A stretch of DNA of 64,000 nt, taken from contig DAOUJW010000017.1 of the NCBI GenBank assembly GCA_034422115.1, positions 119,379 to 183,378 of the forward strand, given 5' to 3'. The notes below the pieces were generated by a model. That model was not told the origin of the DNA. It saw nothing but the letters and a program-made list of their open reading frames with translations, and made no database searches. Within the stretch, counting starts at the first letter, position 1. Every line of letters starts with the position of its first letter. The DNA comes from Dehalococcoidia bacterium (GTDB taxonomy: Bacteria > Chloroflexota > Dehalococcoidia > Lucifugimonadales > UBA2985). A program made the position numbers and the translations under genes. Below are positions 33,983 to 43,966 of this stretch, in pieces.

Positions 33983-34801
33983 CTATCTGCCCTTCCAGTC
34001 CGGCGCTCGCTTCTCGGCGAAGGCCTTGGGGCCCTCCATTCGGTCCTCGCTGTTGGCAACCCTCTCCTGGAGCGGCCGGTTCAGTTCTCGCAGGTGGTCC
34101 AGGAGCAGCGTCCCGGTCGGCGGGGTGGGCGGGTTGTGGTGGAGCCGCACGCCGTTCTTGAGGGCCCTGAGGGCCAGGGGAGCGCACAGCTTCAGGAGCT
34201 CGGCCACCCTGTTCGCCTCTTCGATAAGGGCGTCCCTGTCGGGTACAAGGGCCTGGATCAGGCCGATGTCGTAGGCCCGCTCTGCGGTCATGTGCGCGCC
34301 CGTGAGGATGATCCACATGGCCTCGCCCATGGGCACAAAGCCCATCTCCATGGTGTCCACGGAGTTGATGGGCGTAAGGCTGCGCAGTGGCTCCGGCATC
34401 CCGAAGCGGGACTTCTCCGTGGCGATGCGGATGTCGCAGCGATTGGCCAGCTGCATTCCGCCGGCAAGGGCGTAGCCGTCGATGGCTGCGATGGTGGGCT
34501 TCAGGCACTCGTAGACGGCCTGGCTGCCCGAAGGCGTGTTTCGAGACCAAGCGCCGCCTGCGGCGGAGTCGCCCTGGGCCTGCTCCTTCAGGTCGTTGCC
34601 GGCGCAGAAGGCGCGGCCGCCCTCGCCAATGACCACGGCCACCAGCACGTCGTCGTCGGCCTCCACTTCCTGAAAGGCCTCCGTGATGGCAATCCGGATC
34701 TCGGTGTTCAGGGCGTTCATCGCCTCCGGACGGTTCAGAGTGACCCAGGCTATCCTGTCATGTTTCTCGTACTTGACCGTGTTTGACGTAGGTCCAGGCA
34801 T
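33983..34801 (-). CDS. Enoyl-CoA hydratase/isomerase family protein
   Basis: Start MPGPTSNTVKYEKHDRIAWVTLNRPEAMNAL, preceded by AAGGAGGAAGAC. GEGGRAFCAGNDL, AAIDGYALAGGMQLA. Confidence 0.88.
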   Translation of the reverse strand: MPGPTSNTVKYEKHDRIAWVTLNRPEAMNALNTEIRIAITEAFQEVEADDDVLVAVVIGEGGRAFCAGNDLKEQAQGDSAAGGAWSRNTPSGSQAVYECLKPTIAAIDGYALAGGMQLANRCDIRIATEKSRFGMPEPLRSLTPINSVDTMEMGFVPMGEAMWIILTGAHMTAERAYDIGLIQALVPDRDALIEEANRVAELLKLCAPLALRALKNGVRLHHNPPTPPTGTLLLDHLRELNRPLQERVANSEDRMEGPKAFAEKRAPDWKGR

Positions 34802-34995
34802 GTCTTCCTCCTTGCTAAATCTTTGCCTGGGGCGACTTGCGTGAAGTCCCCAGAGCGGCTCTATAATACACGACTCGCCCATAGCCCTGCAATGCAGAAG
34901 GCCAACGGCGCGCGAGGTTGACTGGCTTGACTCCCCGATATGCCAGGGTTACTATCAGTTTAGCGGCGACCCGATTGCACACCAAGGGGGTTGAG

Positions 34996-35694
34996 GTGCC
35001 GGACCAAAAGGTACTGGTTGTAGAAGACGAGGAGAACCTGATAGAGGCGCTCAGATACAACCTTGAGAAAGAGGGCTACGACGTTCTCACCGCAATGGAC
35101 GGCGAGAAAGGCCTTGAGCTTGCCAGGGGCGGCAACCCGGACCTGATAATACTGGACGTTATGCTTCCGAGGCTGGACGGCCTGGAGGTGTGCCGCATCC
35201 TCCGGCGGGACGTGAACACCCCCATCCTGATGCTCACGGCCAAGGGTGAGGAGGTGGACCGGATTGTGGGCCTGGAGCTTGGCGCAGACGACTACGTGAC
35301 CAAGCCCTTCAGTATGCGGGAGCTGCTGGCCCGGGTGCGCGCTATGCTCAGGCGTTCGCGGATGGCATCGGAGGCGATGTCGTCGGGCGGCGGCGAGTCG
35401 TACACTGCGGGCGACCTTGAGGTGGATCTGTCCAGCCACACGGCCAGGCTGGGGGCCGCGACCCTTGACTTGAAGCCAAGGGAGTTCGACCTGCTGGCGC
35501 TCCTCGTCGCCAACAAGGGGCGGGCAATCTCCCGGGACCAGATACTGGAACGCCTCTGGGGGTACGACTACATAGGCGATACCCGCACGGTGGACGTGCA
35601 CGTCCGCTGGCTGCGGGAGAAAATCGAGACCGACCCGGGCAGTCCCAAGAGGATCATCACCATCAGGGGAGTAGGGTACAGGTTTGAAGGGTGA
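34996..35694 (+). CDS. PhoB/PhoP-type (OmpR-family) response regulator
   Basis: GTG 34996 gives VPDQKVLVVEDEENL...DLIILDVMLPRLDG...KPF, with winged helix LKPREFDLL...IITIRGVGYRF. It is adjacent to the PhoR-like kinase and pstSCAB-phoU. Confidence 0.88.
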   Translation: MPDQKVLVVEDEENLIEALRYNLEKEGYDVLTAMDGEKGLELARGGNPDLIILDVMLPRLDGLEVCRILRRDVNTPILMLTAKGEEVDRIVGLELGADDYVTKPFSMRELLARVRAMLRRSRMASEAMSSGGGESYTAGDLEVDLSSHTARLGAATLDLKPREFDLLALLVANKGRAISRDQILERLWGYDYIGDTRTVDVHVRWLREKIETDPGSPKRIITIRGVGYRFEG

Positions 35695-37454
35695 GTTTTC
35701 TTCATAGTCTCCAATGGCGCATTGTTCTAGCCTATACCGCTCTCATCATCGTCTCTATGGGTGTAGTCAGCCTCTATCTGGTCAACTTTGTTAGAGGCAC
35801 TTACACATCCAACCTGGAAGAGAGACTGGAGCATGAGGCCGGCCTGATTGGGGAGAACAGCGCTATGTTCTTCAGCGGATCAGTGGACCCCGGTGGTCTG
35901 CAGGAAGCCAACGAACGCATTGCCGGTCTGATTGACGCCCGAATCACCGTAATCGACCTGGAAGGCGCGGTCCTGTCGGACACCTGGGAGAACCCGGAGT
36001 CTATGGAGAACCATGCACTGCGCCCGGAGGTGCTGGGCGCTCTCAACACCGGCCTCGGCAAGAGTACGCGGTTCAGTTCTACGGTCGGCGTGGAGATGCT
36101 CTACATTGCCACACCAATCCGGGTAGGCGATACTGTTCTGGGCGTAGCCAGAGTCGCAATGCCGACCTCTGTAATCCAGTCAAACGTCAACCGTATCATC
36201 GCAACCATCTCCTTCTCCGCCGTCATAGTCACGGCGCTGTCCCTGGCCCTGGGCTACTACCTGGCCCGTCGCACCTCCAGGTCCGTCCGCTCAGTGGCAG
36301 AGGCGGCGGGCCGGCTTGCGTCCGGCGATATGGAGCAGAGGGTTGAGGCGCTGTCTCAGGACGAGACGCGTGAGCTTGCGGAGGCCTTCAACAGCATGGC
36401 CACGACCATCAGGACCAACATTCAGCAGCTTTCGGCTGAGCGCGACAAGCTCTCGGCTGTCCTTGAGACAATGGGCGACGGCGTGGTGGTCATCGGCTCG
36501 GAGGACCAGGTTGAGCTGCTCAACACCGCAGGCGAGGCGCTGCTGGGCGTGGGCGGGCCAACCTCCGAGGGCGGGCGGTTCATGGAGGTGGTGAGGGACC
36601 ACGAGCTGCAACGGCTGGTGTCGCTTTGCCAGGAGACGGGAGAGAGGCAGTACGGCGAAGTCGAGCTTCTCCAGAGGGGGCGCTTTCTGAGCTGCATCGC
36701 CACTCCCCTGAGCGGGGACGGCTCCCCCGGCGTACTGCTGACCCTGCACGACCTCACCAGGATTCGGCAGGTGGAGACGACCCGCAGGGAGTTCGTCAGC
36801 AACGTCTCCCACGAGCTGCGTACCCCCCTGGCCGCCGTCCGGGTGATGGCGGAGACCCTTGAGAGCGGCGCGCTGGAGGAGCAGGAGGTGGCCAGGGACT
36901 TTGTGCGCCGTATCCAGGGGGAGATAGACCGCATGAACAGCATGGTTGAAGACCTGCTGGAGCTGGCGCGGCTGGAGGGCGGCCAGGCCATGCTTGATAC
37001 AGCCCCGGTTGACCTGGGATCACTTATGGAGGACGTCAGGGCCCAGTATCGAGCGCAGGCGGAGGCCAAGAGCATCAAGGTCTCCATTGCCGTTGCGGAG
37101 GGCCTGCCCACGGTTCTTGGCGATGAGGAGAAGCTCCGCCAGGTGTTCTCCAACCTGTTGACCAACGCGCTCAAGTTCACCTCTGTTGAAGGGGAGATAA
37201 CCCTGTCGGCTAGAGCGGAGGTGCGAGCCGTGGCCGTGAGCGTCAGCGACAACGGCGTGGGCATTCCGGAAGAGCACCTTCCCCACATATTTGAGCGCTT
37301 CTACAAGGTGGACCGCTCCCGAAGGGACGGCGGCACGGGGCTGGGGCTGGCCATCGTCAAGCACATCGTCCAGGCCCACGGCGGCGAGGTGTGGGTGGAG
37401 AGCCGCGAGGGCGGCGGCAGCTCATTCTCCTTCAGACTTCCCGCGGCAACCTAG
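35691..37454 (+). CDS. PhoR-like sensor histidine kinase (TM, HAMP, PAS, HisKA, HATPase_c)
   Basis: FVSNVSHELRTPLAAV H-box, NLLTNALKFT, DNGVGIP, GGTGLGLAIVKHIVQAHGG. Overlaps the RR stop by 4 nt. Confidence 0.88.
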   Translation: MSFLHSLQWRIVLAYTALIIVSMGVVSLYLVNFVRGTYTSNLEERLEHEAGLIGENSAMFFSGSVDPGGLQEANERIAGLIDARITVIDLEGAVLSDTWENPESMENHALRPEVLGALNTGLGKSTRFSSTVGVEMLYIATPIRVGDTVLGVARVAMPTSVIQSNVNRIIATISFSAVIVTALSLALGYYLARRTSRSVRSVAEAAGRLASGDMEQRVEALSQDETRELAEAFNSMATTIRTNIQQLSAERDKLSAVLETMGDGVVVIGSEDQVELLNTAGEALLGVGGPTSEGGRFMEVVRDHELQRLVSLCQETGERQYGEVELLQRGRFLSCIATPLSGDGSPGVLLTLHDLTRIRQVETTRREFVSNVSHELRTPLAAVRVMAETLESGALEEQEVARDFVRRIQGEIDRMNSMVEDLLELARLEGGQAMLDTAPVDLGSLMEDVRAQYRAQAEAKSIKVSIAVAEGLPTVLGDEEKLRQVFSNLLTNALKFTSVEGEITLSARAEVRAVAVSVSDNGVGIPEEHLPHIFERFYKVDRSRRDGGTGLGLAIVKHIVQAHGGEVWVESREGGGSSFSFRLPAAT

Positions 37455-37475
37455 AACGCAACACAATCGTTTCCG

Positions 37476-37510
37476 GAAGAGGCTTCTGTGCACAGAAGCC
37501 TCTTTTTTCT
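37476..37510 (+). terminator. Rho-independent terminator after the kinase gene
   Basis: GAAGAGGCTTCTGTG/CACAGAAGCCTCTTC perfect palindrome, followed by TTTTTTCTTT. Confidence 0.85.
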
Positions 37511-37519
37511 TTCCAGGAA

Positions 37520-37563
37520 CCTTAAACGGATGTTAAAGCCGTGATAAAACCGCGTTAAACGGG
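37520..37563 (+). promoter_or_regulatory. Pho-box-like array: four 11-bp-phased direct repeats
   Basis: ccTTAAACGGA tgTTAAAGCCG tgATAAAACCG cgTTAAACGGG, with cores at 37522, 37533, 37544 and 37555. Followed by TATGCT and the RBS/ATG of the MBL hydrolase gene. Confidence 0.6.
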
Positions 37564-37596
37564 CGGGGGTATGCTGAAGGTGAAAGGAGGCTCCAG

Positions 37597-38436
37597 ATGA
37601 TGAGATTGGAAGTCCTGGGTAGCTGGGCGGGAAGTCCGGGAGCCGGAGGCGCGTGCTCAGGCTATCTGCTGGCGGATGGCGACACAAAGATACTCTTCGA
37701 CTGCGGCCCGGGTGTTGTGCCGGTGCTCCAGGAGCACGTTGAACCCGACGACGTGTCCGCGGTCTTCATCAGCCACATGCACGCCGACCACAGCCTGGAC
37801 CTCCTGACCTACGCCTACAGACTCATTCGATTCACCTGGAGGGGCCTGGACCTGGGCGAGGTTGAGAGAATACCTCTCTACCTGCCGCCCGGAGGCCTCA
37901 ACGTACTTGACCACCTCCTGGCAGCCTACGGACGGCCGGGCAGTGGCAAGCTGGACAACCCCTTCACCAGGGCCTTTGACCCCAGGGAGCTTGAGCCTGA
38001 GGAGGAGGTCTGGATTGGGGATACCAGGGTAGTGGCCCATCCCGTTCAGCACCCGGTCCCCTCATACGGCTACAGGGCGGAGTCGCCGGTTGCAACATTC
38101 GGCTACTCCGGGGATACGGCCCTGTGTATGGGGCTGGGGAGAATTGCGATGGGAGTGGACATGCTCCTTTGCGATGCATCGGCGACTCAGAGCAGCGATC
38201 CGGTTCTGGTCGAGAAGGGCGGCCATCTGAGCGGCCGGCAGGCCGGCGCCCTGGCCGAGGAGATGGGCGTCAAGCAGCTTGTGCTGACACACCTGAGCCG
38301 CCAGGACCCTGAGTGGCTGGTCGCCCTGCTGGACGAGGCCAAGAGCGAGTTCAGGGGGCACGTGGAGATTGCCACCACCGGAATGGTAATACCGGTAGCC
38401 GAGCAGTTTGCGCGGATGGCGTATGTAAAAGGTTAG
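37597..38436 (+). CDS. MBL-fold metallo-hydrolase (RNase Z / phosphodiesterase-like)
   Basis: RBS AAAGGAGG. HxHxDH motif ISHMHADHSLD. C-terminal LVLTHLS. Confidence 0.8.
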   Translation: MMRLEVLGSWAGSPGAGGACSGYLLADGDTKILFDCGPGVVPVLQEHVEPDDVSAVFISHMHADHSLDLLTYAYRLIRFTWRGLDLGEVERIPLYLPPGGLNVLDHLLAAYGRPGSGKLDNPFTRAFDPRELEPEEEVWIGDTRVVAHPVQHPVPSYGYRAESPVATFGYSGDTALCMGLGRIAMGVDMLLCDASATQSSDPVLVEKGGHLSGRQAGALAEEMGVKQLVLTHLSRQDPEWLVALLDEAKSEFRGHVEIATTGMVIPVAEQFARMAYVKG

Positions 38437-38519
38437 ACAACCCAAAAGGCAGGGGGAACCGTTCGAGGGAGAGTACCCTGAGCCTTAACTCCTTTAGCGT
38501 GGGGTGAGAGTCTTGGACC

Positions 38520-38710
38520 ATCGGGCTCTCGCCCCTCAGCTGTTTTGGGGGGCCGACCGTCATTTCGAACGGAGTGAGGAATCTAAAGCCACAGCCTGCA
38601 AAGGTGCGTCGTATTGAGCGAAGAACCTGGATTCCTCGCGAAGTTCATCCTGAGCGTAGCCGAATGGCTCGGAATGACATCTAAGGGGCTCCGCTTAATT
38701 CTGCGCAAAG
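38520..38710. repeat. Cluster of short hairpin repeats (GTCATTTCGAACGGAGTGAGGAATC / TCATCCTGAGCGTAGCCGAATGGCTCGGAATGAC types)
   Basis: Sequence types I recognise as common intergenic palindromes. The region's only ORF (38614..38814) is made of them. Confidence 0.45.
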
Positions 38711-38786
38711 CTCTTCGCAAGCGTTGGAGGAGAAATCAAGCGCCCAAACCAGGTTGCTCAGGCTACTCCGCGGAAGCCTACCAAAG

Positions 38787-38852
38787 CCTTAATCCGGCGT
38801 TCAGTCTTCCTTAACCCATCTTTAATCGGGCGATAACAGCCCGTTAACGCGC
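38787..38852 (+). promoter_or_regulatory. Pho-box-like array: six 11-bp-phased direct repeats
   Basis: Cores TTAA 38789, TTCA 38800, TTAA 38811, TTAA 38822, ATAA 38833, TTAA 38844, upstream of the 38911 ORF. Confidence 0.55.
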
Positions 38853-38910
38853 GGGTGCTACCTTGTAGCCATAACCTGATAAACAACGGAGCAACAAGAG
38901 GAAAGGAGGG

Positions 38911-39210
38911 ATGCTAATGCAGGATATGGCCACGATGGTCGTGGAAAAGGAGATTCAGCGCGGGGCAGTGAGCATACCGCTGAGGAGGCGGATTCTCGGG
39001 GTTGTGGCTCACACGCTCGCAATGCTTTCTCCCGGCCTGCCCAGGCCGAAGAGCTGCTCTTGCGGGTACCCCATGGATCTCAGAGGTGACCTTCTGACGG
39101 ACGAGGACACCGAAATGATAGTGGAGGGGGTGCGCTTCTGGAACTGCTCCCGCTGCGGCGACAGCGTGAAGGAGCGCTACTGCTTCCCAACGTACCAGGA
39201 GACGCTGTAG
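38911..39210 (+). CDS. Hypothetical Cys-rich (possible zinc-ribbon) protein; start more likely ATG 38917
   Basis: RBS GAAAGGAGGG. CSCG...(about 40 aa)...CSRCG cysteine pairs. No family recognised. Confidence 0.55.
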   Translation: MLMQDMATMVVEKEIQRGAVSIPLRRRILGVVAHTLAMLSPGLPRPKSCSCGYPMDLRGDLLTDEDTEMIVEGVRFWNCSRCGDSVKERYCFPTYQETL

Positions 39211-39214
39211 GGCG

Positions 39215-39270
39215 TCTTAATGGTACGTTAAAGAAGATTTAACAGTCCGTTAAAGTAAGACCCTTAAACT
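39215..39270 (+). promoter_or_regulatory. Pho-box-like array upstream of pstS
   Basis: tcTTAATGGTA cgTTAAAGAAG atTTAACAGTC cgTTAAAGTAA, with cores at 39217, 39228, 39239 and 39250. A fifth TTAAAC lies at 39264. Confidence 0.65.
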
Positions 39271-39302
39271 TAGACAATGCTGGAGGTTGTGAAAAAAGAC
39301 AC

Positions 39303-40433
39303 ATGCGCCTTCTGAAAAAGGAAACAAGAAAGAAGTCTGGAGGCTTCCGGGTTGTGCCGGCGGCCTTAATTTTTATTGTGCTCACCCTGGGCCTGCTGGC
39401 CGTCGCCTGCGGTGAGGAAGACCCAACCGTTGCGCCCACGGCTACTTCCGACACCATGGCGCCGGCGGCCACGGACGCCATGCCTCAGGCCACGGACGCC
39501 ATGATGATGTACGAGGGGGAGATAGCGGTATCGGGGTCCAGCACGGTATTCCCGATCAGCGAAGCGATGGCTGTTGAGTTCAAGACCGTGCAGCCTGACG
39601 TTCGCGTTAACGTGGCGTCGACGGGCACAGGAGCCGGTGGCCGCGCGATGTGCGCCGGAGAGGCAGAGGTCTGGAACGCCTCTAGGCCGTCGAAGCAGTC
39701 TGAGCTGGACACGTGCGCGGAGGCCGGAATTGAGGTGATAGAGATACCGGTGGCCTTTGATGCGCTGTCCGTGGTGTTGAACCCCGGCAACGACTGGGTC
39801 GAGTGCCTGTCAGTGAAGGACCTTGAGACGATATTTGGCCCTGAGGCCCAAGGCGACGTGACCAACTGGAACCAGGTTGACCCGTCATACCCGGACTTGA
39901 ACCTGCGGCTGTACGGCCCCACGACGGCGTCCGGCACCTTTGACTACTTCACCGAGGCCATTATGGACGAGGGCGGAGCGCACCGCGGGGACATGGACCT
40001 GGCAACGGAGGAAGACCCGCTGATAGCGCAGGGGGTGAACGGGGCGCGCGGCGGTGTGGGGTACTTTGGGCTGGCCTACTACGCCCAGTACCAGGAGTTG
40101 GTGAAGGGCGCTGCGATAGAGAATCCTGCCACGGGCGAGTGCGTGGAGCCTTCGGCTGAGTCGGTTGAGGCGGGTTCGTACCTGCCCCTGGCAAGGCCGA
40201 TATTCATCTACGTGCGTGCGGACACTTTGGACGAGAGGCCGGAGGTGGAGGCGTTTGTGAAATTCTACCTGGATCAAGCGCCGAACCTGGTGACGGCAGT
40301 TGGATACGTGCCGCTGCCCGCCGATGTGTATGCGTGGGCCCTGGACAGGCTGGAGAGCCGGACAACCGGGTCGGTGTTCAAGGACGTGGCTGCGGGTACG
40401 CCCATTAACGAGGTGTTGGAGAGAACCCAATAG
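39303..40433 (+). CDS. pstS: Phosphate ABC transporter substrate-binding lipoprotein PstS
   Basis: Lipobox LLAVAC, GSSTVFPI, SRPSKQSE and GTFDYFTE are typical of PstS-family binders. Confidence 0.9.
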   Translation: MRLLKKETRKKSGGFRVVPAALIFIVLTLGLLAVACGEEDPTVAPTATSDTMAPAATDAMPQATDAMMMYEGEIAVSGSSTVFPISEAMAVEFKTVQPDVRVNVASTGTGAGGRAMCAGEAEVWNASRPSKQSELDTCAEAGIEVIEIPVAFDALSVVLNPGNDWVECLSVKDLETIFGPEAQGDVTNWNQVDPSYPDLNLRLYGPTTASGTFDYFTEAIMDEGGAHRGDMDLATEEDPLIAQGVNGARGGVGYFGLAYYAQYQELVKGAAIENPATGECVEPSAESVEAGSYLPLARPIFIYVRADTLDERPEVEAFVKFYLDQAPNLVTAVGYVPLPADVYAWALDRLESRTTGSVFKDVAAGTPINEVLERTQ

Positions 40434-41356
40434 TGGCGAATATTGTCGCCGGATCTTTGCGGGACAGGCGCCTTCGCAGGAAACTGCGGGAGGCGCCTAT
40501 CCTCGCGTTTCTTTTCCTGTGCGCCTTCGTATCGGTGGTGACAACCCTTGGCATAGTGATCGTGCTGCTGGCGGAGGCGTTGCAGTTCTTCCGAGAGGTC
40601 TCCATAGTGGAGTTCCTCACAGGGACCGAGTGGACGCCGCTGTTCTCTATCAAGCAATTTGGAGTGCTGCCACTCCTTTCGGCGACGGCCCTCATTTCCT
40701 TCTTGGCGCTGGGCATAGCCTTCCCCGTCGGCCTGCTGACCGCCATATACCTGAGCGAATACGCCCCGGACAGCGTGCGGTCGACGGTGAAGCCGGTGCT
40801 TGAGGTGCTGGCCGGGATACCGACGGTGGTCTACGGGTTCTTCGCCATATCCTTCATCAACCCGTCCATCATACGGCCCATCTTTGAGACGGAGACCATA
40901 TTCACGGCCCTGGGTGCCGCAATGGCCATGGGCGTGATGCTCATTCCCATGGTGGCGTCTCTGAGCGAGGACGCCATGCGCGCCGTGCCCTCCGCCCTGA
41001 GGGAGGGGGCGTACGCCGTGGGATCCGACCGGCTTCAGGTGTCGGTCAGAGTGGTGGTCCCGGCGGCCCTGTCCGGGATCGTGGCGGCTGGCCTCTTGGC
41101 CCTGGCCAGAGCGGTAGGGGAGACGATGATCGTCACCATCGCCGCCGGGGGCATATCGAACCTGTCGTGGAACCCCCTTGAGGCCATGCAGACCATGACG
41201 GCGTACATAATGGAAGTGGCCATGGGCGACACGCCGAGGGGCACCGTTGAGTACGAGAGCATCTTTGCCGTGGGTCTGATGCTGTTCGTGTTCACGCTGT
41301 CGTTGAACATGCTGGCCCAGGTTGTGATAGCGAAGTTCAGGGAGATATACGATTGA
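40433..41356 (+). CDS. pstC: Phosphate ABC transporter permease PstC
   Basis: The GTG overlaps the pstS stop by 1 nt. 6-TM permease with EAA-type loop SLSEDAMRAVPSALREGAYAVG. Confidence 0.9.
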   Translation: MANIVAGSLRDRRLRRKLREAPILAFLFLCAFVSVVTTLGIVIVLLAEALQFFREVSIVEFLTGTEWTPLFSIKQFGVLPLLSATALISFLALGIAFPVGLLTAIYLSEYAPDSVRSTVKPVLEVLAGIPTVVYGFFAISFINPSIIRPIFETETIFTALGAAMAMGVMLIPMVASLSEDAMRAVPSALREGAYAVGSDRLQVSVRVVVPAALSGIVAAGLLALARAVGETMIVTIAAGGISNLSWNPLEAMQTMTAYIMEVAMGDTPRGTVEYESIFAVGLMLFVFTLSLNMLAQVVIAKFREIYD

Positions 41357-42243
41357 TTCCCACAGCCACTTATGACAGGCCCGTTCAGAGAAACCAGGCA
41401 ATTCGCAAGGCGCGGGGGATTGGCTTTATTTTCCTGGCTATGCTGGCTACGTCGCTGGGCGTGGTTGTCCTGGCGGTGCTGCTGATAACCGTGGTCAGGG
41501 ACGGCATTGGGGCGCTCAGCTTCGACTTCGTCAACAGCTTCCCGCACTACAAGGCGGCGGAGGCCGGGGCAAAGTCCGCCCTTGCGGGGACCCTCTGGGT
41601 GATGGCGATTACGGCGTTCTTTTCCATAATTGTGGGTGTAGGGGCGTCCATCTACCTGGAAGAATTTGCTTCGCGTAACTGGTTTACCAAGATAGTGGAG
41701 ACGAACATCAACAACCTGGCCGGAGTTCCTTCGGTGGTGTATGGCCTGCTGGGGCTGGCGGTGTTCGTTTACGGCATGGGATTCGGCCCCACCATCATGG
41801 CTGGCGGTCTCACCCTGGCGCTACTCATCCTCCCCATCATAGTGGTGGCGTCGAGGGAGGGCCTGCGGTCAGTGCCCCCTTCCATAAGAGAGGCGGCTAT
41901 GGCCCTGGGCGCGACCAGGTGGCAGGCGGTGCGATTCCAGGTGCTGCCGGCGGCGCTGCCCACGATCTTGACCGGCTTTATCCTTGCGCTGGCCAGGGCC
42001 ATCGGCGAGACGGCTCCCCTTATCGCCATAGGAGCCTTTACGTCAGTCCTGTTCGTGCCAACCGATCCCTTTGACGCATTCACGGTGCTGCCGGTGCAGA
42101 TTTACAGCTGGATCAGCAGGCCCCTGCCGGCCTTCCAGGAGAACGCGGCGGCCGGGATAATAGTGCTTCTTGCCGTCCTGCTGCTGATGAACGCAGTTGC
42201 CATAACGCTGAGAAACATTTACTCTAGGAGGAGCAGATGGTAA
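41353..42243 (+). CDS. pstA: Phosphate ABC transporter permease PstA
   Basis: Overlaps pstC by 4 nt. [24 protein letters not shown] loop. Confidence 0.9.
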
Positions 42244-43079
42244 CCAATAAATTAGTGAGTCCGCCGCATGTAAGCGCGGCGGAAGCAATTGTGGAGTTGC
42301 CAGTGGATGCGTCTTCAGAGCCGGTAATCGACGTCAAGGGTCTCAGGGCTTTCTACGGGAGCCACCTGGCGGTGAAGGATATTGACCTCTCACTGCGGCG
42401 CGGGCGCGTCACGGCCGTCATTGGTCCATCCGGGTGCGGCAAGAGCACTCTCGTCCGCTGCCTCAACCGGATGCACGAGATGATACCCGGGGGACACGTG
42501 CAGGGCCACGTCTTCTACCAGGGAGATGACATATACGACCCCAAGGTTGACCCGGTTGAGCTTCGCAGCCGAATCGGGATGGTCTTTCAGAAGCCAAACC
42601 CGTTCCCCAAGTCCATTTTCGACAACGTGGCCTTTGGCCTGAAGGTGAACGGAATCAGCGACCACATTGCGGACAGGGTGGAGCGCTCCCTCAGGCGGGC
42701 GGCTCTCTGGGAAGAGGTGAAGGACAGGCTGAAGGAGAGTGCCCTTCAGCTCTCCGGCGGACAGCAGCAGCGACTTTGCATCGCCAGGGCCCTGGCCGTG
42801 GAGCCGGAGGTTATCCTGATGGACGAGCCGTGCTCGGCGCTGGACCCCATGGCAACTCTGGCCGTGGAGGAGCTGATCCGGGAGCTGTCCCAAGAGGTCA
42901 CCATCATCATAGTAACCCACAACATGCAGCAGGCCGCCCGTGTCTCCCACGAGACTGCCTTCCTCATGACGGATGAAGACAGGTCGGGATATCTGGTAGA
43001 ATATGGGCCAACCAACGAGATTTTCACGAACCCCAAGAACGAGCGCACAGAGGCGTACATAACGGGCCGATTCAGCTAG
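42237..43079 (+). CDS. pstB: Phosphate ABC transporter ATP-binding protein PstB
   Basis: Walker [10 protein letters not shown], signature [14 protein letters not shown], Walker [12 protein letters not shown], PstB-typical NRMHE. Confidence 0.95.
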
Positions 43080-43100: not shown

Positions 43101-43778
43101 ATGCTCAGGGCGGACTTTGACAGGCATCTGCGGATGCTGCAGAGCGATCTCCTAATCCTGGGAAGCATGGTGGAGAAGGCCATTATGAAGTCGCTGGATG
43201 CCCTGAAGCGACGGGACCTTGAGGCGTCCCGCCAGGTCATCCTGGAGGACGACTTCATAGACGAGAAGCGCTTCCAGCTGGAGGAGCAGTGCGTGGAGCT
43301 CATTGCCACCCAGCAGCCAATGGCCAGCGACCTCAGGGCCATCATCACAATGCTCCACATCGCCGTTGAGCTGGAGCGCATGGGGGACTACGCCGAGGGC
43401 ATAGCCAAGATCAGCCTGATGATGGGCGACGATCCTCCCCTTAAGCCCCTGATTGACATACCCCGGATGTCTGAGATGGCAACAGACATGCTCCGCCGGA
43501 GTCTGGACGCCCTTGTGCACAAGGACACGGTTTCAGCAATGGCCGTCTGCCACGACGACGATGACGTGGACGCCCTGTACGACCAGGTGTACCGGGAGCT
43601 CATCTTCTTCATGATCCAGGACCCCAAGACCATCCAGCGCGCCACCCACCTGCTGTGGGTTGCCCACGACATCGAGCGCGTTGCAGACCGGGCCACCAAC
43701 ATCGCCGAGAGGGTGATCTTCATGGTCACCGGGAAGATGTTTGAGATCAACTCGCCAACCCGCGGTACTTCCACCTGA
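43101..43778 (+). CDS. phoU: Phosphate signalling complex protein PhoU
   Basis: 225 aa with two PhoU repeats (ELERMGDYAEGIA, DIERVADRATNIAE). Confidence 0.92.
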   Translation: MLRADFDRHLRMLQSDLLILGSMVEKAIMKSLDALKRRDLEASRQVILEDDFIDEKRFQLEEQCVELIATQQPMASDLRAIITMLHIAVELERMGDYAEGIAKISLMMGDDPPLKPLIDIPRMSEMATDMLRRSLDALVHKDTVSAMAVCHDDDDVDALYDQVYRELIFFMIQDPKTIQRATHLLWVAHDIERVADRATNIAERVIFMVTGKMFEINSPTRGTST

Positions 43779-43891: not shown

Positions 43892-43966
43892 TGGAGCGGG
43901 TGATGGGGATCGAACCCACGACAACTTGCTTGGGAAGCAAGAGCTCTACCACTGAGCTACACCCGC
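43892..43966 (-). tRNA. tRNA-Gly (anticodon CCC), CCA encoded
   Basis: The reverse complement GCGGGTGTAGCTCAGTGGTAGAGCTCTTGCTTCCCAAGCAAGTTGTCGTGGGTTCGATCCCCATCACCCGCTCCA folds into a cloverleaf: 7-bp acceptor stem, GCTC/GAGC D stem, CTTGC/GCAAG anticodon stem with loop TTCCCAA, and a GGTTCGATCC T arm. Confidence 0.93.

Follow-up and report, generated by a model that had tools for sequence, protein, structure and literature searches.

Phased TTAA repeats with the features of Pho boxes precede three promoters at a pstSCAB-phoU locus of a Dehalococcoidia bacterium

A 64-kb stretch of contig DAOUJW010000017.1 from a Dehalococcoidia bacterium (G+C content 61.9%), in the following called the window, harbors a phosphate-uptake locus. 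According to Pfam and NCBIfam, its genes are arranged in the order response regulator, histidine kinase, metallo-β-lactamase (MBL)-fold hydrolase, a small cysteine-containing open reading frame (Cys ORF) and pstS-pstC-pstA-pstB-phoU. An inspection of the bare letters by a model (the sequence-only reading) had named an OmpR-family regulator, a PhoR-like kinase and pstSCAB-phoU, and these gene calls agreed with the domain searches. The same reading had proposed that direct repeats upstream of the MBL gene, the Cys ORF and pstS are Pho boxes, i.e., binding sites of a phosphate regulator. The repeats consist of 14 tetramers grouped into three arrays of 4, 6 and 4 units. Eleven of the 14 units are exact TTAA, and the remaining three deviate by one mismatch (ATAA twice, TTCA once). 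All 14 positions named in the sequence-only reading lie in a strict 11-bp register, as had been claimed.

Within the 64,000 bp of the window, TTAA occurs 55 times compared with about 84 copies expected from base composition, and 11 of the 55 reside inside the arrays. Fourteen pairs of TTAA are spaced 11, 22 or 33 bp apart, each of them within an array. Shuffling was carried out 1000 times in 200-bp blocks, by which the local composition, and with it the AT-richness, was preserved. Start positions with at least three of four phased TTAA numbered four in the window and on average 0.004 in the shuffled sequences, while four phased TTAA were not encountered in any of the 1000 shuffles. The assumption that such phasing is unlikely to arise by chance was thus corroborated. 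A position weight matrix (PWM) built from the 14 units and run over both strands gave 40-46 bits for the arrays and 4 bits for the next best site of the window on either strand; this test is circular, as the matrix was trained on the arrays it scores, but the gap is nonetheless very large. The information peaks at TTAA, while C at position -2 (10 of 14 units) and G or C at position -1 (8 and 4 of 14) contribute less. TTAA is followed by A in six, C in four, T in three and G in one of the 14 units, and positions further 3′ are almost uninformative. The consensus (c/t)gTTAAA(c/g) suggested by the sequence-only reading is therefore approximate only: its TTAA core stood, but the flanks are less defined, with A, C or T following the core.

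All three arrays are followed by a TAnnnT hexamer at a constant distance of exactly 15 nt, counted from the first T of the last unit to the first base of the hexamer. The previous statement that the arrays end shortly before a -10 region was accordingly correct and can be sharpened to a fixed offset. In relatives, the -10 region of the Cys-ORF promoter reads TACCTT, TATATT or TACATT. No -35-like hexamer was found 17 bp 5′ of the three -10 regions, and a sigma-70 promoter scan called none of the three promoters; the same scan did call the regulator's own promoter (TTGACT-17-TACTAT, 34927-34955). Assuming a transcription start about 7 nt downstream of the -10 region, the units are situated at about -60, -49, -38 and -27, and array 2 extends out to about -82. 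As far as can be read from the sequence, this layout is that of activator-dependent Pho promoters. A further TTAA at 39264 was considered as a fifth unit upstream of pstS and rejected; it lies at +14 and is out of phase, and it belongs to the -10 region because relatives read GTAAACT. A scan of positions 34700-39500 against Rfam (E <= 1) disclosed no riboswitch or leader RNA, the match to RsmY (17.9 bits versus a gathering score of 57 bits) being a chance match.

To footprint the arrays, loci of ~12 kb from relatives, i.e., Dehalococcoidia metagenome-assembled genomes (MAGs; e.g., OZ242025.1, OZ244718.1, OZ253466.1 and DAOUKT01), were read, and invariant positions were counted over distinct sequences (n = 5, 8 and 6 for arrays 1, 2 and 3, respectively). 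The arrays are kept in all of these relatives. In array 1, upstream of the MBL gene, the cores are invariant to 100%, the spacers to 48% and the 40 bp further upstream to 16%. The corresponding values for array 2, upstream of the Cys ORF, are 96%, 31% and 3%. Array 3, upstream of pstS, gave 100% for the cores and 33% for the spacers; here the upstream sequence is coding DNA. Units with one mismatch (ATAA, TTCA) do not vary among the relatives either. In array 2, conservation has a sharp boundary at the first unit, which is also seen in L004-L006 with their transposase/insertion sequence (IS), integrase or methyltransferase genes upstream. In L002, where phoPR has the opposite orientation and the MBL gene follows an enoyl-CoA hydratase gene, array 1 is still associated with the MBL gene. 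An origin of the window repeats from a satellite or mobile element was ruled out, as the spacers diverge while the cores stay conserved. The only variants seen anywhere within arrays were ATAA, TTCA and CTAA. Their mirror forms TTAT, TGAA and TTAG are absent from the arrays (a lone TTAT flanks an array of L013), which indicates that the core, although palindromic, is recognized in one direction, as expected for head-to-tail binding.

The architecture also extends to deeper relatives (L009, L010 and L011, one of them annotated as Dehalococcoidia), whose MBL proteins are 55-59% identical to that of the window and which retained the order regulator, kinase, MBL gene, small ORF and pstSCAB-phoU. 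Four-unit arrays precede pstS in L010 and L011 (three exact TTAA in L011), with TACATT and TACTGT, respectively, at +15. In L009 (51% G+C), an array with TAAAAT at +15 precedes a gene of the His_Phos_1 phosphatase family that runs into pstS. In this region (L009, 7611-8425), the end of the phosphatase-family gene overlaps the start of pstS, and an extra ORF of 96 aa is located between the Cys ORF and the array. All three deeper relatives have an array in front of the MBL gene, and L009 and L011 have one in front of the small ORF as well; the small ORF of L010, which begins 37 bp after the MBL gene, lacks an array of its own. The exact 11-bp register and the +15 offset hold across lineages of 51 to 62% GC. 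A detector requiring at least four phased units, at most one mismatch per unit and at least two exact units was applied to 242 kb (window plus loci) and found sites only in front of MBL, small-ORF or pstS-position genes. Conservation in orthologous promoters, which had been proposed as a check, was thus evident in near and distant relatives (cores 96-100%, spacers 31-48%).

Table 1. Features of the phosphate locus, with positions in the window
Feature	Position	Strand	Details
OmpR-type response regulator	34996..35694	+	Pfam Response_reg + Trans_reg_C
PhoR-like sensor histidine kinase	35691..37454	+	Pfam sCache_like-HAMP-PAS-HisKA-HATPase_c
Intrinsic terminator after the kinase gene	37475..37506	+	14-pair stem, then T-run
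Putative Pho-box array 1	37522..37558	+	Four units: TTAA 37522, TTAA 37533, ATAA 37544, TTAA 37555
-10 region TATGCT, MBL promoter	37570..37575	+	Read from sequence; TAAGCT, TATCCT or TATGCT in relatives
MBL-fold phosphodiesterase-like protein	37597..38436	+	Lactamase_B_2 (PF12706), 80 bits
Possible weak terminator of the MBL unit	38501..38535	+	13-pair hairpin, then UCAGCUGUUUU
Putative Pho-box array 2	38789..38847	+	TTAA 38789, TTCA 38800, TTAA 38811, TTAA 38822, ATAA 38833, TTAA 38844
Extended -10 region TGcTACCTT, Cys-ORF promoter	38856..38864	+	TG 38856-38857, hexamer TACCTT from 38859
Small Cys-containing protein	38917..39210	+	97 aa; CxC...CxxC, GVRFWxCxxC motif
Putative Pho-box array 3	39217..39253	+	Four exact TTAA: 39217, 39228, 39239, 39250
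-10 region TAAACT, pstS promoter	39265..39270	+	Invariant in alignment of relatives
pstS, phosphate-binding protein	39303..40433	+	PBP_like_2; TIGR02136 252 bits, cut-off 206.6 passed
pstC	40433-41356	+	BPD_transp_1
pstA	41353-42243	+	BPD_transp_1
pstB	42237-43079	+	ABC_tran
phoU	43101..43778	+	PhoU domain, two copies
tRNA-Gly (CCC)	43892-43966	-	Directly downstream of phoU

Metagenomes were searched without reference to genes for the pattern TTAA-N6-S-TTAA-N7-TTAA-N6-S-TTAA-N11-TANNNT, which gave at least 120 loci. Among those listed, 31 were plain 11-bp satellites and 88 were distinct arrays whose units differ from one another. Downstream of 66 of the 88 arrays, an ORF of at least 80 aa started no more than 200 nt away, and 60 of these 66 ORFs were analyzed with Pfam; all following counts relate to these listed matches. 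Canonical phosphate genes accounted for 18 of the 60 ORFs. As this is far above background, the pattern appears to be a general signature of Pho promoters. The families comprised PstS-type PBP_like_2 (11 ORFs), the phosphate porin Porin_O_P (two), and PhoX, phosphoesterase PF04185, PhoU, PhoU_div and Na/Pi cotransporter-PhoU (one each). Moreover, five LMWPc (phosphatase/arsenate-reductase-like) proteins, seven SusC-like TonB-dependent receptors, two ABC ATPases, one GT4 glycosyltransferase and one solute-binding protein were found, while the remainder belonged to unrelated families or to none. Homologues of the window regulator (49-65% identity) are located beside five of the listed arrays (L070, L133, L134, L049 and L109), and a homologue of the kinase was scored at L070, L133 and L134. 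The G+C content of the contigs ranges from 33 to 68%, and many of the metagenomic units read CTTAACA.

Some of these loci deserve a description of their own. In L034 (2610-3100; 62% GC), PhoX and PstS are encoded divergently on opposite strands, each preceded by its own four-unit TTAA array. The LMWPc genes follow directly after five independent arrays of four TTAA units, in which the offset to the -10 region is unchanged (L029, L019, L055, L122 and L124), and three of these arrays (L019, L055 and L124) adjoin homologues of the window's PhoR kinase or PhoU. The LMWPc gene can therefore be regarded as a recurrent candidate member of the Pho regulon. Arrays of the CTTAACA type precede the SusC-like receptors in L023, L024, L039, L098, L105, L118 and L127 (35-50% GC). 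The architecture of these receptors (CarboxypepD_reg, Plug and barrel) is typical of Bacteroidota, which suggests that the TTAA box type may control phosphate-responsive outer-membrane uptake there.

The best match of the window regulator among solved structures was the mycobacterial phosphate regulator RegX3 (229 bits), and the receiver domain of Bacillus subtilis PhoP gave 160 bits. With NCBIfam models, the regulator scored 268 bits for YycF and 228 bits for PhoB (cut-off 296), both below the cut-off. For the kinase, 362 bits were obtained with PnpS (cut-off 400), 299 bits with phoR_proteo (334) and 404 bits with WalK (725); it came nearest to the cut-off with PnpS, the pneumococcal PhoR. 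Upstream of phoPR, a TTGAC-N6-TTGAC pair (34919/34930) was considered as a repeat and discarded, as conservation of its first copy does not extend to L001 or L007. The conserved part of this region is the ordinary TTGACT-17-TACTAT promoter. Judging from its stem and T-run, the terminator after the kinase gene separates phoPR from the MBL unit.

Differences among the relatives were also observed within the pst genes. PstS is a single-domain protein of 376 aa in the window and of 372 aa in L006. In two independent relatives, L001 (6387-8462) and L002 (6386-8464), it comprises 691-692 aa with two PBP_like_2 domains in tandem. According to these sequences, duplication/fusion of the PstS domain, or its loss, divides close relatives. 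In several relatives (L004-L008), the pst genes are in fragments, and in L007 and L008 an IS (rve/HTH_Tnp_1) resides at the 3′-end of the Cys ORF and replaces pstS. The fragments and IS may reflect either frameshifts of long-read assemblies or real decay of the locus.

The MBL protein possesses both PF12706 and the motif SHMHADH, which fits the [T/S]HxHxDH signature of atypical class-II phosphodiesterases around Rv1339, YhfI and CpdA, all of which are cyclic-nucleotide phosphodiesterases (PMC9293780). YhfI prefers cAMP and cGMP as substrates (PMC9117128). The best matches in the PDB were 1zkp and 6kns (YhfI), and homologues additionally carry PF23023 according to precomputed annotation. The NCBIfam model for cyclic-nucleotide-degrading phosphodiesterases (NF041851) gave 160 bits compared with a cut-off of 400 bits, indicating that the protein is a relative of the family rather than an equivalog. 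On the basis of fold and motif, we assign the gene to the Rv1339/YhfI/CpdA phosphodiesterase family. Another MBL phosphodiesterase, PhnP of Escherichia coli, belongs to the phosphonate pathway and is Pho-regulated; the window protein scored only 36.7 bits for PhnP. The phosphodiesterases of this family are cytoplasmic. An N-terminal signal peptide was not detected in the MBL protein, and thus any P scavenging, as considered in the sequence-only reading, would be intracellular. A role in signaling is equally conceivable.

The MBL gene is dispensable in some relatives (L007 and L013). There, array 1 and its -10 region run straight into the sequence which in the window begins just past the stop codon of the MBL gene (L007, 5561-5650; L013, 4552-4640; compared with window positions 37522-38475). 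The deletion junction lies at a short AAAGG repeat, and the promoter left behind faces the Cys-ORF region. The fold of the hairpin downstream of the MBL gene was not significant (z = -1.75; 12 of 200 shuffles equally stable), and the hairpin was omitted by the terminator scan. The spacer between the MBL gene and the Cys ORF amounts to ~350 bp in the window and to ~155 bp in L002. It contains imperfect inverted repeats (within 38545-38785: 38567-38583/38630-38646, GAACGGAGTGAGGAATC / GATTCCTCGCGAAGTTC; furthermore 38471-38483/38756-38768) and looks like a small inserted element of palindromic or miniature inverted-repeat transposable element (MITE) type. In L011, a different insert of ~300 bp is located between the array and the MBL gene.

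For the Cys ORF, the sequence-only reading had given 99 aa. Annotated homologues begin at the second ATG, which shortens the product to 97 aa. Nineteen homologues with identities of 69-93% were found, as well as distant ones in L010 and L011 (33-34%) at the same position in the locus. The products of the window and of the deeper relatives have the motif LP...C(x1-2)C...M(D/E)L...GVRFWxCxxC...RY in common. The homologues agree in length and in their Cys pairs, and third codon positions take most of the substitutions (e.g., 16/9/34 for the window and L002). In all relatives examined, the Cys ORF lies directly upstream of pstS. An exhaustive profile search of 1.84 billion cluster representatives yielded 30 matches, about a dozen of which are small proteins; the long matches composed of multiple stretches look like noise from Cys-rich repeats and were set aside. 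A homology search seeded with the small ORF of L010 gave only two matches. By its pattern of conservation, the Cys ORF qualifies as a genuine, lineage-restricted gene. No family was found in Pfam or NCBIfam and no usable fold match was obtained (best Foldseek E-value against the PDB 0.43). The AlphaFold2 model (pLDDT 70, pTM 0.56) is beta-rich, and a distant homologue gave a zinc-ribbon match below threshold.

No terminator was seen between the stop codon of the Cys ORF and array 3, which begins 7 nt after the end of this gene. Transcription from the six-unit promoter therefore probably continues into the pst operon. Of the three consecutive transcription units proposed by the sequence-only reading, those of the Cys ORF and pstS are thus not fully separate. 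That the MBL gene and the Cys ORF are phosphate-starvation genes, as likewise proposed, is supported to the extent that the box is kept in front of the gene or operon despite rearrangements (L002, L004-L006 and L010).

Taken together, the arrays are very probably Pho boxes to which the adjacent PhoP/RegX3-like regulator binds. This conclusion is based on statistics, geometry, footprinting, synteny and the blind metagenome scan. Pho boxes are tandem direct repeats with a period of 11 bp and at least two units; here there are four, six and four. They replace the -35 region at a fixed distance to the -10 region, an arrangement evident from sequence alone in the window and in L009-L011, and they are situated upstream of phosphate-acquisition genes close to a PhoR/PhoB-type system, as is the case with pstSCAB-phoU and the adjoining regulator and kinase genes. 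The Pho-box proposal of the sequence-only reading was hence supported by locus context, -35 replacement, footprint and blind scan. The repeats with their phase, fixed geometry and selective conservation, and their association with phosphate genes here and in metagenomes, were observed directly; the binding protein, activation and a phosphate signal are inferred. Several results weigh against this conclusion. Neither the regulator nor the kinase reached any NCBIfam equivalog cut-off, so that their identity as a phosphate system rests on architecture and context, and the WalR/WalK models scored slightly above the PhoB/PhoR models, albeit also far below the cut-off. A TTAA array upstream of phoPR was not found, and autoregulation of the E. 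coli or B. subtilis type is not evident. Furthermore, the 64-kb window contains no further array and no other recognized Pho gene. Finally, approximately 40% of the listed metagenome matches precede unrelated or unknown genes, indicating that the pattern alone is not fully specific.

Other explanations of the arrays have to be weighed against these data. AT-rich tracts recurring once per helical turn can bend DNA and stimulate promoters, and the phased tetramers might therefore be purely structural, acting by curvature, as UP-element-like enhancers or as sites of nucleoid proteins without a specific phosphate regulator. However, TTAA and its variants ATAA and TTCA are invariant base by base, while the spacers, which could be AT-rich equally well, drift. 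The exact 11-bp register and +15 offset across lineages of 51 to 62% GC, together with the strong association with phosphate genes among the listed matches of the blind scan, leave this explanation with scarcely any probability. Another possibility is that the arrays are operators at which the regulator or another protein represses transcription. The last unit is only 11 nt away from the -10 region, so that a bound protein would cover the -35 region, and PhoP-family proteins act as repressors at some promoters. Yet the promoters lack a -35 region and have weak -10 regions, and should thus be silent without an activator. In addition, the arrays agree with the activated Pho promoters of B. subtilis and E. 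coli in position (-60 to -22), in strand and in the number of units (PMC1906773, PMC11870197), and in the systems covered by the literature consulted the Pho regulator acts on pstS as an activator rather than as a repressor (PMC4415409, PMC1906773). We consider repression very unlikely for these reasons.

The protein bound might also be a different one, e.g., another OmpR-family regulator encoded elsewhere, in which case the signal need not be phosphate. This would be compatible with the equivalog scores of the adjacent regulator and kinase, with phoPR lacking its own array, and with the persistence of the arrays in L004-L006, where phoPR is not located within 6 kb upstream. Nevertheless, phoPR is the sole DNA-binding function in the conserved synteny, homologues of the regulator adjoin arrays in five independent contigs among the matches listed, and the genes downstream of the arrays listed in the blind scan are overwhelmingly phosphate genes. 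Since an array of 11-bp direct repeats in place of the -35 region is moreover the signature of PhoB-type regulators (PMC4415409, PMC1906773, PMC11870197), binding by a different protein seems improbable to us.

If the arrays are Pho boxes, phosphate limitation would cause the PhoR-like kinase to phosphorylate the adjacent regulator. Dimers of the phosphorylated regulator would then bind head-to-tail, two on arrays 1 and 3 and three on array 2; the even unit numbers (4/6/4) fit such dimers. The occupied units would be centered near -60, -49, -38 and -27 (up to about -82 in array 2) on one face of the helix, where the regulator could stand in for the missing -35 region and bring RNA polymerase to the weak -10 region (TAnnnT). 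This would switch on the MBL gene, pstSCAB-phoU and the Cys-protein gene, the transcription of which probably extends into pst. A more far-reaching joint reading is tentative and, in our estimation, rather doubtful: the Cys protein might be an unrecognized, Dehalococcoidia-restricted component of the phosphate-starvation response (e.g., a zinc-ribbon-like modulator of PhoR/Pst signaling), the Pho-controlled MBL enzyme might tie starvation to the turnover of cAMP/cGMP or 2′,3′-cyclic nucleotides instead of simple scavenging, and the six-unit array might make this pair respond most strongly or earliest within the locus.

The analysis yields, at the level of sequence, a predicted Pho box together with its promoter layout for the uncultured Dehalococcoidia (Chloroflexota). 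By this means, the Pho regulon of an environmentally abundant, mostly uncultured group should become predictable from MAGs, and phosphate stress readable in metatranscriptomes. The predicted regulon includes two unexpected members, the Rv1339/YhfI-type phosphodiesterase and the orphan Cys protein. TTAA-core boxes in 11-bp phase with the +15 offset are widespread far beyond cyanobacteria and may serve as a general search pattern rather than being a curiosity of one lineage.

With Rv1339 of Mycobacterium tuberculosis, YhfI of B. subtilis and CpdA of Corynebacterium glutamicum, to which phage Apyc1 is related, the MBL protein shares the fold, PF12706 and the [T/S]HxHxDH motif, but it stays far below the equivalog cut-off of this family (160 of 400 bits). 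Our literature search found no report of Pho-box control in the Rv1339/YhfI/CpdA family and no description of a Pho box in Chloroflexi or Dehalococcoidia. As to the arrays, the sequence-only reading had held that their sequence differs from those of E. coli, Bacillus and Streptomyces and is specific to the lineage. It was right regarding E. coli and Streptomyces. Their Pho boxes likewise consist of 11-nt direct repeats with a species-dependent sequence (E. coli, CTGTCAT; Streptomyces, GTTCACC; PMC4415409). Common to the window arrays, the PhoB sites of E. coli, which end 10 bp upstream of the -10 region, and the direct repeat units of Streptomyces PhoP are 11-bp direct repeats replacing the -35 region (PMC4415409, PMC1906773), whereas the recognition sequence differs. 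Head-to-tail binding as in these organisms is presumed for the window arrays.

Regarding Bacillus, the distinction did not hold. B. subtilis PhoP recognizes four TT(A/T/C)ACA-like repeats with a period of 11 bp, even numbers from two to eight being functional (PMC11870197). The window arrays share with this site the four units or even number, the period, the orientation on the coding strand and the first four bases. Both TTAA and TTCA fit TT(A/T/C)A, and the third unit of the pstS array is an exact TTAACA as in the B. subtilis repeat. The B. subtilis site is reportedly placed at about -60 to -20. Differences consist in the terminal CA, which is present in a minority of the window units, in the occurrence of ATAA at fixed positions and in the host, which is not a Firmicute.

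The cyanobacterial box had been overlooked by the sequence-only reading. SphR of Synechocystis PCC 6803 binds to at least three tandem 8-bp boxes with the consensus CTTAACCT, which are separated by 3-bp linkers. Among the sites predicted for cyanobacteria are GTTAATCTtcaGTTAACCT and CTTAAACTtccCTTAAATT, and these Pho boxes are located upstream of pst, sphX and phoA (PMC1906773). The TTAA core and the 11-bp period of the window arrays are those of the SphR box (PyTTAAPyPy(T/A) or CTTAACCT), and several window units, reading CTTAACCC, CTTAATCC or GTTAACGC, come close to it. The window arrays differ from the SphR box by their four or six units, by the weakly defined 3′ half of the box and by the Dehalococcoidia host, in which they are known from sequence. 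In view of this resemblance, and of the similar arrays in metagenome contigs of 33-68% GC, the notion of a lineage-specific sequence had to be abandoned. The lineage is new for the TTAA motif, while the motif and its mechanism were already known.

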